Of a DNA stretch of 64,000 nt, positions 15,001-21,000 are shown piece after piece (position 1 is the stretch's first letter; every line of letters begins with the position of its first letter). The position numbers were made by a program. The stretch lies in assembly GCF_054482595.1 (NCBI RefSeq), contig NZ_CM137008.1. The stretch is one strand, 5' to 3'.

Positions 15001-18000
15001 CCGGGAAGAAGGCTGTTTAGCGTGAAATCTGCGGAATTAAGTCTAATTCTTAACCGCTCCGCAATGCTTTTGTAGATCATCTCTAGATCTCTTTTTTGCC
15101 TGCAAGCCCGGGTAATGCGCCCACAAGTTCTGCTTAATCGATTGAAAAAACATCTTTTTTTTAAAGATGTGTTCGATGCTGTGTACCTGTGCTCACAGAG
15201 GTCTACTTTTTCGCGAAAACGTAGATCTCTACCGCCCAACGAAAAGCATGAAAGCGATCACGAATCCCATTGGGTCGTCATGTTCTGCCGATCGCATCTT
15301 CCTATCCTCGCTCCAGGCCTGCCGCATAACCAATCAGGCTTCCTACTTACAGAATTGAGAAAAGAGGATGTGGAAATGCTCAGTCAAATTCAACGCTTTG
15401 GCGGCGCGATGTTCACGCCAGTGCTGCTGTTTCCCTTCGCCGGGATTGTGGTGGGTCTTGCCATCTTGCTGCAAAACCCGATGTTTGTCGGGGAATCACT
15501 GACCGATCCGAACAGTTTATTCGCGCAAATCGTACACATTATTGAAGAGGGCGGATGGACGGTATTCCGTAATATGCCGCTGATTTTTGCTGTCGGTTTA
15601 CCCATTGGCCTTGCTAAGCAAGCGCAGGGGCGTGCTTGTCTGGCGGTGATGGTGAGTTTCCTGACCTGGAACTATTTCATCAACGCGATGGGAATGACCT
15701 GGGGAAGCTACTTCGGCGTCGATTTCACTCAGGACGCGGTGGCAGGTAGCGGTCTGACAATGATGGCCGGGATTAAAACCCTCGATACCAGCATTATCGG
15801 CGCAATTATCATTTCCGGCATTGTGACGGCGCTGCATAACCGTCTGTTCGATAAAAAACTGCCGGTGTTTCTCGGCATTTTCCAGGGGACGTCTTATGTG
15901 GTGATTATCGCCTTCCTGGTGATGATCCCCTGTGCCTGGCTGATATTGCTCGGCTGGCCAAAAGTACAAATGGGGATTGAATCTCTGCAAGCGTTCCTGC
16001 GTTCGGCGGGTGCGCTTGGGGTGTGGGTTTACACCTTCCTCGAACGTATTCTGATCCCAACCGGTTTACACCACTTCATCTACGGACCGTTTATCTTTGG
16101 TCCGGCAGCTGTTGAAGGCGGCATTCAGATGTACTGGGCGCAGCATCTGCAAGAGTTCAGTTTGAGCGCCGAGCCGCTGAAATCGTTGTTCCCGGAAGGC
16201 GGTTTTGCCCTGCACGGTAACTCAAAAATCTTTGGTGCCGTGGGCATTTCTTTAGCGATGTACTTCACTGCCGCACCGGAAAATCGGGTAAAAGTGGCGG
16301 GCTTGCTGATTCCCGCAACCTTAACCGCCATGCTGGTGGGAATTACCGAACCGCTGGAATTTACCTTCCTGTTCATTTCACCGTTGCTGTTTGCGGTACA
16401 CGCTGTGCTTGCGGCCTCAATGTCGACCGTGATGTATCTCTTTGGTGTGGTGGGCAACATGGGCGGAGGTCTGATTGACCAGGTTTTACCGCAAAACTGG
16501 ATCCCGATGTTCAGCAACCACGCGGATATGATGTTGACCCAAATCGCCATTGGGTTGTGCTTTACCCTGCTGTACTTCGTGGTTTTCCGCACCCTGATTC
16601 TGCAATTCAACATGTGCACGCCGGGACGTGAAGATGCGGAAGTGAAACTCTACTCAAAAGCCGAATACAAAGCCTCGCGAGGCCAAACCACCGCGGCAGA
16701 GCCAAAAAAAGAGCTGGATCAGGCTGCCGGTATCCTGCAAGCCCTGGGCGGGGTCGGCAATATCTCCAGCATCAACAATTGCGCGACGCGTCTACGTATT
16801 GCACTGCATGACATGTCACAAACGCTGGATGACGAAGTCTTTAAAAAGCTGGGAGCGCACGGCGTCTTCCGTAGTGGCGATGCCATTCAGGTGATCATTG
16901 GTCTGCATGTATCCCAGCTGCGTGAACAGCTCGATAGCTTAATTAATTCTCATCAATCAGCAGAAAATGTTGCCATTACGGAGGCAGTATAATGACCAAA
17001 TTCTCAGTGGTTGTCGCAGGCGGTGGAAGCACCTTTACGCCTGGCATCGTGTTGATGCTCCTGGCGAATCAGGACCGTTTCCCGCTTCGTGCACTGAAAT
17101 TTTATGATAACGATGGTGCGCGGCAGGAAGTGATTGCCGAAGCCTGTAAAGTCATCCTTAAAGAGAAAGCGCCGGACATTGCGTTTAGTTACACCACCGA
17201 TCCTGAAGTGGCATTCAGCGACGTTGATTTTGTCATGGCGCACATCCGCGTCGGCAAGTACCCGATGCGCGAACTGGATGAAAAAATCCCACTGCGCCAC
17301 GGTGTTGTTGGTCAGGAAACTTGCGGACCCGGCGGAATAGCGTACGGCATGCGTTCCATTGGCGGCGTCCTGGAACTGGTGGATTATATGGAAAAATATT
17401 CACCAAATGCCTGGATGCTCAACTACTCCAACCCGGCAGCAATTGTTGCAGAAGCCACGCGTCGTCTGCGCCCGAATGCGAAAATCCTCAACATCTGTGA
17501 CATGCCAATCGGTATTGAAAGCCGGATGGCGCAAATTGTTGGGCTGCAAGATCGCAAACAGATGCGCGTGCGCTATTACGGCCTGAACCACTTTGGCTGG
17601 TGGACATCAATTGAAGATTTGCAGGGCAACGACCTGATGCCCCAGCTGCGGCAATATGTCTCTAAGCACGGTTATGTTCCACCGCAGCAAGATACGCATA
17701 CTGAAGCGAGCTGGAACGACACCTATGCAAAAGCGCGGGATGTCCAGGCACTGGACCCGGATACATTGCCGAACACCTATCTGAAATATTATCTCTTCCC
17801 GGATTATGTTGTTCAGCATTCCAACCCTGAACATACTCGCGCGAATGAGGTGATGGAACATCGCGAGAAACAGGTTTTCGATGCTTGCCGCGCCATTACG
17901 GCGGCAGGAAATTCAGCGGCGGGCAAGCTGGAGATTGACGAACATGCGTCATACATCGTCGATCTGGCGGCGGCAATTGCCTTCAACACTCAGGAGCGGA

Positions 18001-21000
18001 TGTTGCTGATTGTGCCTAACAACGGGGCAATTCATAACTTTGATGATGAAGCGATGGTCGAGATCCCGTGTCTGGTCGGGCACAACGGACCAGAACCACT
18101 GGTGGTCGGCGATATCCCGCAGTTTCAGAAAGGGTTTATGAGTCAGCAAGTGGCGGTGGAAAAACTGGTCGTGGACGCCTGGGAACAGCGTTCATATCAG
18201 CACCTGTGGCAGGCGATTACGTTGTCGAAAACGGTACCGAGCGCCTCGGTCGCCAAAGCTATTCTGGATGAGTTGCTGGAGGCCAACAAAGCGTACTGGC
18301 CAGAGTTACGTTAATTGTGTGGACTGGCATCCGTTGGGTGCTGGTCCGTATTCTTTAGCACGGCTGAAGGCGCATAACCAAATTTATGTTTAAAGGCTTT
18401 GCTGAAATGAAAGGAGTCGAAGAAGTTGAGCGTATCAGCGACTTCGCCAACCGAGTTTCCTTGTTGCTTTAATAGCGATAGCGCCAGATCCAGACGCGCA
18501 TCGAGGTAATATTCTTTCGGCGTCTTGCCGGTATAGCGTAAAAACAGACGACGCAACCAGGCTTCGCTACAGGGGATCGTGGCAGCCATATCGGCTACGC
18601 TCCAGCGTTGTTGCAGACTGGCATGTAAAGTGGCAATTAATTTTTCAATTTGCCGCCGTTGTGGATCTTTTTTACCGTCTGCGTACATAAGACAAATCCA
18701 CTGATAAATAATTTTCGTCAGAAAAGCGACTGCCAGATTATTTTTTATTGCTTCTGGTGAAGTTATTAACTCAGCAACTTCGGTGAGTTCCTGATTATAA
18801 ATTTCGCCATTATAAATAACGCTTTGCTGACCAACGGGAATATCCATCATACTGGTGGGGGTAAATTCCATCCAGTACTGTTCCCAGACTAAACCTTCAC
18901 AGTGATAAGAGTGAATATCCATTGGCTTTAAAAATATAATACAGTTGCCATGCAGAGTTATTTGTTCGCCATTCTTTAAAAGAATTTTCCCACATCCTTG
19001 TACGGTATACACCGCAACCCATGAGTTGGCGATAAGCGGTTTCTTCTTGTCCCGCGGCCAGATCACCCGGTAATGCTCGTCGGCGTAGGTATGCCAGAGC
19101 GAGATCAGAGAAATTCCGCTGGAGATCACATTTTCGTTAATCAATAAGGGAATATTGTACGGAGTTTCGTTTTTTACATCTGAACTTTGCAATTTTCCAT
19201 TCATTTTAATATCCCTCCGGCGAATTATGCTCACAACCTGAACTTAACAGAAAACAATCCGTTCAGGGATACGACGTTTGTATTTTAAGAATCTGACTGC
19301 CTGACCCGACGCATTTTACCTCTCCCTATATTCATGCGTCCGGGACATAAACATAAATAAGGGCTATGAGATGAATTCGTTACAAATCTTGAGTTTTGTC
19401 GGTTTTACGCTGCTGGTGGCGATCATCACCTGGTGGAAGGTTCGCAAAACAGATACCGGATCGCAACAAGGCTATTTTCTTGCCGGACGTTCACTAAAAG
19501 CGCCGGTTATTGCCGCTTCGTTAATGTTAACCAACCTTTCCACGGAACAACTGGTTGGTCTTTCCGGGCAGGCCTACAAAAGCGGCATGTCGGTGATGGG
19601 CTGGGAAGTGACTTCAGCGGTGACGCTGATCTTCCTCGCGCTAATCTTTTTACCGCGCTATCTGAAGCGCGGCATTGCCACCATCCCCGATTTTCTGGAG
19701 GAACGTTATGATAAAACGACGCGTATTATCATCGACTTCTGCTTCCTCATTGCCACCGGCGTCTGCTTTCTGCCGATTGTTCTCTACTCCGGCGCGTTGG
19801 CGCTCAACAGCCTGTTTCACGTCGGGGAATCGCTACAGATTTCTCACGGTGCGGCTATCTGGCTACTGGTAATTTTGCTTGGTCTGGCGGGAATTTTGTA
19901 TGCGGTGATCGGCGGACTGCGCGCAATGGCAGTGGCGGACTCCATCAACGGTATTGGGCTGGTTATCGGCGGGTTGATGGTGCCGGTATTTGGCCTGATC
20001 GCGATGGGCAAGGGCAGCTTTATGCAGGGCATTGAGCAAATTACCACCGTTCACGCCGAGAAATTAAACTCAGTCGGTGGCCCGACCGATCCCTTGCCGA
20101 TTGGCGCGGCATTTACCGGTTTAATTCTGGTGAACACCTTTTACTGGTGTACAAATCAGGGCATCGTGCAACGCACGCTGGCGTCAAAAAGCCTGGCGGA
20201 AGGGCAAAAGGGGGCGCTGTTAACGGCGGTGCTGAAAATGCTCGACCCGCTGGTACTGGTGCTGCCAGGGTTGATTGCGTTTCATCTGTATCAGGATCTA
20301 CCGAAAGCCGACATGGCCTACCCGACGCTGGTCAATAACGTTCTGCCAGTGCCACTGGTGGGTTTCTTCGGCGCGGTGTTATTTGGTGCGGTGATCAGTA
20401 CCTTCAACGGCTTTCTGAATAGCGCCAGTACGTTATTCAGTATGGGTATTTACCGTCGCATCATTAACCAGAATGCCGAGCCGCAGCAGCTGGTCACCGT
20501 CGGGCGCAAATTTGGTTTCTTTATCGCTATCGTTTCGGTGCTGGTCGCGCCGTGGATCGCCAACGCGCCGCAGGGGCTGTATAGCTGGATGAAACAGCTC
20601 AACGGCATTTACAACGTGCCGCTGGTTACCATCATCATTATGGGCTTTTTCTTCCCGCGCATCCCGGCGCTGGCGGCAAAAGTGGCGATGGGGATTGGCA
20701 TAATCAGATACATCACCATCAACTATCTGGTGAAGTTCGACTTCCATTTCCTCTATGTGCTGGCCTGTACGTTCTGCATCAACGTGGTCGTGATGCTGGT
20801 GATCGGTTTTATCAAACCGCGCGCCACGCCGTTCACCTTCAAAGATGCGTTTGCGGTGGACATGAAACCGTGGAAAAACGTCAAGATCGCGTCAATTGGC
20901 ATCCTGTTCGCGATGATTGGCGTCTATGCCGGGCTGGCTGAATTCGGCGGCTACGGTACGCGCTGGTTAGCGATGATCAGTTATTTCATTGCCGCCGTAG

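Follow-up and report, generated by a model that had tools for sequence, protein, structure and literature searches.

In Escherichia coli K-12, the glv genes are split or pseudogenised. Is the same locus complete in other strains and, if so, what would it encode? The question is raised by a stretch of 64,000 nucleotides (nt) of contig NZ_CM137008.1 (NCBI RefSeq assembly GCF_054482595.1), which is referred to here, at its full length, as the window and to which all positions refer. Three genes are concerned: yidP, a divergently oriented regulator gene, and glvCB and glvA, which encode a predicted sugar transporter of the phosphotransferase system (PTS) and a predicted hydrolase of glycoside hydrolase family 4 (GH4). 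On the evidence of homology, we regard it as quite likely that this region holds the glv (agl-like) cassette of E. coli, yidP-glvCB-glvA, in its ancestral, undamaged form, which would specify an α-glucoside pathway. A megablast search returned the chromosome of E. coli XH990 (NZ_CP019359.1; urine, Zhejiang, China) as the best match of the window, at the same coordinates, and the first 50 kb differ at five single bases (4723, 9762, 15944, 20708, and 37085). The window is accordingly not identical to that assembly, and its source would be either a strain very closely related to XH990 or a different version of the XH990 sequence. The RefSeq annotation of XH990 names the two glv products 'PTS sugar transporter subunit IIB' and '6-phospho-alpha-glucosidase', and places yidE and yidP at one flank of the pair and yidL at the opposite flank.

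Reading frames, domains, and key residues of glvCB and glvA

glvCB (aglA-like; 15376–16992, plus strand) encodes a 538-residue fusion of the PTS enzyme IIC (EIIC) and enzyme IIB (EIIB) domains, predicted to be α-glucoside specific; it has no IIA domain. The mechanically derived open reading frame (ORF) spans 15115–16992 on the plus strand (625 residues), and the ATG at 15376 was taken as the start. This choice is supported because the RefSeq annotation of XH990 uses the same start, because a Shine-Dalgarno sequence, AGAGGA (15363–15368), lies 7 nt 5' of this ATG, and because, in an alignment, the N-terminus (MLSQIQRFG) falls on residue 1 of an AglA-type orthologue. The latter belongs to a locus (L007) that was found by an exact-match look-up of residues 4–442 of the PDB 6DUX chain, the last residue being guessed. 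We take 6DUX to be AglB of Klebsiella pneumoniae, and the locus is assigned to Klebsiella on that assumption; it is called the Klebsiella-type locus below.

The integrity of the glvCB frame, its domains, and its phosphorylation site were observed directly. The translation contains one stop, which is terminal, and no frameshift. Pfam places EIIC (PF02378) at residues 10–346 and EIIB (PF00367) at residues 453–482. Against the profile of α-glucoside IIBC proteins (TIGR02005), GlvCB scores 957.6 bits, well beyond the cut-off of 607.3, with residues 2–523 covering profile positions 1–524. Its scores lie under the equivalog cut-offs for PtsG (317.6 versus 591.8) and MalX (279.8 versus 632.2), and the cut-off of the NagE model is likewise far above its score. 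An alignment with the structures of E. coli PtsG extends over all of GlvCB and shows that GITEP, the TPGRED linker, and the IIB cysteine are kept. This cysteine is Cys469 (codon 16780–16782, plus strand), the EIIB phosphorylation site within NNCATRLR, which aligns with the cysteine of PtsG DACITRLR. E. coli PtsG and MalX share with GlvCB the EIIC-linker-EIIB architecture and the GITEP, TPGRED, and CxTRLR cysteine motifs, but they are paralogues, not orthologues. A single 538-residue ORF thus carries both the EIIC domain and the NNCATRLR motif, in agreement with the original prediction of a fused IICB protein.

The full-length 538-residue IICB protein bears the RefSeq product name 'PTS sugar transporter subunit IIB'. 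GlvCB residues 378–538 are matched by an NCBIfam equivalog, NF007255 (161 positions), which models the K-12 GlvB fragment. This is likely the reason for the name, and the label is therefore likely a naming artefact carried over from the pseudogene state of K-12.

glvA (glvG/aglB-like; 16992–18314, plus strand) encodes a 440-residue GH4 protein, predicted to be an NAD+- and Mn2+-dependent 6-phospho-α-glucosidase. Frame and catalytic residues were again read directly: the sole stop is terminal, no frameshift is present, and both GH4 domains are found (PF02056, residues 6–184; PF11975, residues 195–415). GlvA is 89.3% identical to PDB 6DUX and 72.8% identical to Bacillus subtilis GlvA (PDB 1U8X), and both alignments run end to end, so that the hydrolase is indeed full length, as had been proposed. 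Column conservation was counted in 76 full-length representatives out of a search of 1.84 billion proteins. The NAD motif, GGGS, occupies residues 10–13, and its columns are conserved in 54–72 of the 76. Cys169, His200, and Tyr263 align with identical residues of 6DUX and 1U8X and are kept in 75, 74, and 74 representatives, respectively. The GlvA structure paper reportedly assigns Cys171 and His202 as Mn2+ ligands and Tyr265 as a catalytic residue (GlvA numbering). The sequence NICDMP lies at residues 167–172, and the column of Asp170 contains Asp in 46 representatives and Asn in 21. According to Hall, Pikis and Thompson, C-D-M-P is said to mark phospho-α-glucosidases and C-N-x-P phospho-β-glucosidases.

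The stop codon of glvCB overlaps the start codon of glvA as TAATG, with GGAGG 7 nt upstream, an arrangement that suggests translational coupling of the two genes.

Lesions of K-12 and states of the locus across E. coli

In K-12 MG1655, the same locus holds glvC (368 residues, b3683), glvB (161 residues, b3682), and the glvG pseudogene (815 bp, b4556). A base-by-base comparison of K-12 with window positions 15000–18700 revealed 30 substitutions (roughly 1% of the ~3.1 kb aligned) and one internal gap. The locus and its flanking genes are the same in both, whereas the split IICB and the truncated GH4 protein are found in K-12 and not in the window. The two underlying lesions were observed directly. 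The first is a single C>T change at 16480: codon 369 of glvCB (16480–16482, plus strand) is CAG (Gln) in the window and TAG in K-12, a nonsense codon that splits glvC from glvB with no frameshift, and K-12 GlvB restarts at Met378. The second is the loss of a 508-bp segment (17585–18092, plus strand) from K-12 glvG. Its length is not a multiple of three, and GH4 residues from about 198 onward are lost. An 8-bp direct repeat, GAACCACT, is located at 17585–17592 and 18093–18100; since this octamer opens the deleted segment and also directly follows it, the lesion has the form expected when sequence between two short direct repeats is deleted.

The statement in the original prediction that the K-12 glv genes are split or pseudogenised is thus borne out, and both lesions have been located. 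The K-12 stop and deletion are both absent from the window, its sequence over this region differs from that of K-12, no internal frameshift is present, and the nearest genome is XH990; the strain is not K-12. That is a weak statement because the K-12 stop codon occurs in only a small minority of E. coli genomes, as the following survey shows.

The survey set comprised 5,426 complete E. coli genomes, and the alleles of glvCB codons 369 and 190 were called with allele-specific 55-mers, for which a central mismatch leaves no 28-nt seed. Coverage of the glv locus reaches at least 80% in 4,264 genomes. The 508-bp segment is kept in 1,652 (30%), including O157:H7 and BL21(DE3), and 2,643 (49%) give one perfect match to the exact K-12 deletion junction. 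About 1,150 genomes (21%), for example those of phylogroup B2, keep only yidL, and the whole yidP-glvCB-glvA cassette is gone. In the B2 strain PMV-1, yidE abuts yidL, and yidP, glvCB, and glvA are missing en bloc. Touchon et al. (2009) listed glvC among the functions specifically absent from B2 strains (PMC2617782). Codon 369 is CAG in 3,925 genomes, whereas 348 have TAG; the ten TAG genomes among the matches listed are all K-12-type laboratory strains or derivatives. The intact state of the window is one of four common, annotated states of a polymorphic locus; it is ordinary and already known.

In genome NZ_CM173849.1, only half of the junction query found a match (about 21954–21985), and the annotation has a TnpB-family RNA-guided endonuclease gene at that place. 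The glv locus of this genome may have been disrupted by yet another route, namely insertion of a mobile element.

Ancestry, control region, and proposed function

The Klebsiella-type locus consists of a yidE-like gene, a divergent GntR-UTRA regulator gene, genes for a IICB protein (540 residues) and a GH4 protein (440 residues), and yidH-yidG-yidF-like genes. It corresponds to the K. pneumoniae AglA/AglB type (PDB 6DUX/6DVV), with which the window cassette shares the order of divergent GntR regulator, IICB, and GH4 genes, the position next to yidE, the lack of a IIA domain, and the catalytic residues. The identities to the window proteins are 81% for IICB, 89% for GH4, and 80% for the regulator in the same position. 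Orthology and synteny were observed directly: the same gene order and chromosomal position make the cassette orthologous, and, judged from this comparison, the intact cassette is ancestral and the E. coli variants represent secondary decay or loss. The E. coli locus differs in that yidL-yidK-yidJ-yidI lie between the cassette and yidH, and the window alleles carry two substitutions, GlvA L382F and GlvCB T190I.

A more distant relative is the B. subtilis pair GlvA (MalA, 1U8X) and GlvC (MalP). The GH4 proteins are 73% identical, and the Bacillus EIICB also borrows IIA from another protein. The Bacillus regulator, GlvR, belongs to the RpiR family rather than to GntR, and the gene order is glvA-glvR-glvC. 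According to PMC5309279, the Bacillus GlvA and GlvC genes confer growth on isomaltose and panose when placed in K-12. The same paper, with reference to Pikis 2006, Thompson 2001, and Reizer 1994, reports that K. pneumoniae aglA and aglB let K-12 grow on isomaltose, methyl-α-glucoside, and the sucrose isomers, and that the K-12 homologues of aglA and aglB seemed cryptic or truncated.

yidP (14364–15080, minus strand), which is identified by Pfam and annotated under this name in XH990, encodes a GntR/HutC-type regulator, presumed to be the repressor of the cassette. It comprises an N-terminal GntR domain with a winged helix-turn-helix (PF00392, residues 3–64) and, C-terminally, a UTRA effector domain (PF07702, residues 87–224), and it is lost along with glvCB-glvA in PMV-1. 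The intergenic control region between yidP and glvCB (15081–15375, 295 bp, not assigned to a strand) contains, besides the Shine-Dalgarno sequence of glvCB, two candidate regulatory sites. The first is a candidate operator palindrome at 15197–15230 (AGAGGTCTAC..GTAGATCTCT), 34 bp in length, with 17-nt arms that are 88% complementary. Its half-sites, GTCTA and GTAGA, are kept in the alignment with the intergenic region of the Klebsiella-type locus, which is otherwise poorly conserved. The second is a CRP-like site, CATGA-N6-TCACG, at 15247–15262, the half-sites of which are kept in the Klebsiella-type locus but the spacer of which differs, as expected for a CRP-type site. YidP probably acts on the conserved GTCTAC-N14-GTAGAT palindrome to repress the divergent promoter, and the candidate CRP-like site suggests catabolite control of the cassette.

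A scan of 14300–19400 for sigma-70 promoters and intrinsic terminators returned none between yidP and glvCB, and its counts were at or below shuffle expectation. When the whole window was searched against Rfam, no match fell within the glv operon or close to it. A hairpin pairing 15294–15309 with 15364–15379, which would hide the Shine-Dalgarno sequence and start of glvCB, was considered and rejected: the fold of 15290–15400 has a z-score of −1.4, and 20 of 200 shuffles were as good. BL21(DE3) (NZ_CP053602.1) keeps glvCB and glvA intact, but its yidP carries an annotated frameshift. Constitutive expression of the glv operon in B strains might follow if YidP does act as a repressor.

The original prediction had proposed a functional α-glucoside uptake pathway. 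Because the pair is 81–89% identical to the AglA/AglB type and its catalytic residues are intact, such a pathway may reasonably be inferred from the sequences of glvCB and glvA. Expression, substrate range, dependence on IIAGlc, and regulation are inferred in the same way, and the following scheme is proposed. Phosphoryl groups would pass from phosphoenolpyruvate via enzyme I and HPr to IIAGlc (Crr, encoded outside the window), which would phosphorylate Cys469 in the EIIB domain of GlvCB. The EIIC domain would import an α-glucoside, phosphorylated at O-6 of the glucosyl moiety; by analogy with AglA, isomaltose, methyl-α-glucoside, and sucrose isomers are likely substrates. GlvA, with NAD+ and Mn2+, would then split the 6-phospho-α-glucoside into glucose-6-phosphate and the aglycone.

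Several observations weigh against a working α-glucoside pathway. Searches with Pfam and TIGR/NCBIfam profiles found no IIA domain in the proteins of the glv locus, and a consensus scan of the 295-bp yidP-glvCB region found no sigma-70 promoter. The cassette has been lost or broken in roughly 70% of the E. coli genomes surveyed, and selection on it is therefore weak or niche-dependent. E. coli has several glycoside operons that are intact yet silent. Finally, both proteins carry a rare missense change. Codon 190 of glvCB (15943–15945, plus strand) is ATA (Ile) owing to the difference from XH990 at 15944, and Thr is found in XH990, K-12, O157:H7, BL21, and the Klebsiella-type locus; this T190I allele is private to the window, its 55-mer matching none of the 5,426 genomes. 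Codon 382 of glvA (18135–18137, plus strand) is TTT (Phe), an allele present in 13 genomes. Leu is the family consensus at this column (Leu in 64 of the 76 representatives, i.e., 84%; Met in 4, Val in 3, Tyr in 2, Ile in 2, Thr in 1, and Phe in none), and it is also found in O157:H7, in BL21, and in five solved GH4 structures (6DUX, 1U8X, and three more distant ones).

The silent operons of E. coli illustrate the explanation that survives best after a working pathway, although we hold it to be unlikely: the glv genes would be intact but cryptic, owing to tight repression by YidP, silencing, or the lack of a natural inducer, and the strain would be α-glucoside negative unless mutated. The result of the promoter scan fits this explanation, and so does the repeated decay or loss of the cassette across the species, which suggests little purifying selection. 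Yet the lack of a consensus sigma-70 promoter is also compatible with an activator-dependent one, and the palindrome and the CRP-like site, which the Klebsiella-type locus also keeps although the two intergenic regions are otherwise divergent, argue for a maintained, regulated promoter. Moreover, about 1,650 genomes, spread over several lineages, still have both ORFs intact. No direct phenotype test of a natural E. coli strain in which the glv operon is intact was found in a literature search. The B2 type strain gives negative results on palatinose, turanose, maltitol, and methyl-α-glucoside (PMC4334874), and it is assumed to lack the cassette in view of the absence of glvC from B2 strains (PMC2617782).

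The pattern of losses could also be read in terms of selection. The three independent kinds of inactivation, namely loss of the cassette (~21%), the 508-bp microhomology deletion (49%), and the K-12 nonsense mutation, would then reflect niche-dependent selection rather than neutral decay, which we think quite improbable. If it were true, dietary sucrose isomers, isomaltose, or maltitol would be open to the minority of strains in which the operon is intact, O157:H7, B strains, and the present urinary isolate among them, and the operon would be selected against elsewhere, for example via sugar-phosphate stress. On this reading, recurrent origin of the identical 508-bp deletion at the GAACCACT repeats is likewise conceivable.

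A further explanation, which we consider very unlikely, is that the genes are full length but that one protein is crippled by its missense change, GH4 L382F or IICB T190I; this would represent the onset of the decay that other lineages show. Such damage is what the rarity of the two alleles could indicate: Phe382 is found in none of the representatives and Leu in all five solved structures, and Ile190 occurs in no genome of the collection, the Klebsiella-type orthologue keeping Thr. However, column 382 accepts Met, Val, Ile, Thr, and even the aromatic Tyr, so that a bulky hydrophobic side chain might be accommodated; position 190 is situated in a transmembrane stretch, and the aligned residue of PtsG is Leu; and neither position is a known catalytic or ligand residue. 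The position affected by L382F is hydrophobic and conserved but admits some variation, and the change is probably benign. An assembly or sequencing artefact was rejected, since the intact state occurs in 1,652 independent genomes.

Neighbouring features and biological meaning

Several other features of the window were recorded. Between ilvN and uhpA, which we take to be adjacent in K-12, two plus-strand genes (28949–30250 and 30858–31961) are annotated as 'hypothetical protein' (433 and 367 residues); neither protein gave a Pfam or PADLOC match, and the insert looks like a small strain-variable island. The segment 43296–61155 contains iatC, encoding an inverse-autotransporter adhesin (10.8 kb), followed by eilA, encoding a HilA-like regulator, and, also 3' of iatC, IpaD/SipD-like, YopB/SseC-like, and SycD/LcrH-like type III secretion genes. 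It is presumably the ETT2-associated eip/eil island. A gene pair for a RelE/ParE-family toxin and a helix-turn-helix antitoxin (41016–41676, minus strand) is located between yicN and nepI.

Adjoining cbrA, an annotated pseudogene fragment with a 'missing N-terminus' lies at 8428–8541 (plus strand). The dgo genes are, we assume, near the position of cbrA in K-12, and dgoT adjoins cbrA in PMV-1; the window has no dgo genes between yidX and cbrA, which may represent a deletion of the dgo operon. Rfam matches above the gathering score were istR by tisB (26241–26370), AsdA antisense to dnaA (511–591), the ROSE_2 thermosensor 5' of ibpA (11491–11563), and the small RNA ES036 (6068–6110), all of which are expected E. 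coli features.

The finding of an undamaged glv cassette leaves the understanding of PTS systems and GH4 enzymes unchanged. Its modest importance lies in the reminder that K-12 serves poorly as a reference for this locus. From the intact operon, the use of isomaltose, isomaltulose, turanose, maltitol, and methyl-α-glucoside is predicted to vary among E. coli strains, and such strain-variable use of α-glucosides could bear on gut-niche differences and on strain-specific metabolic models.

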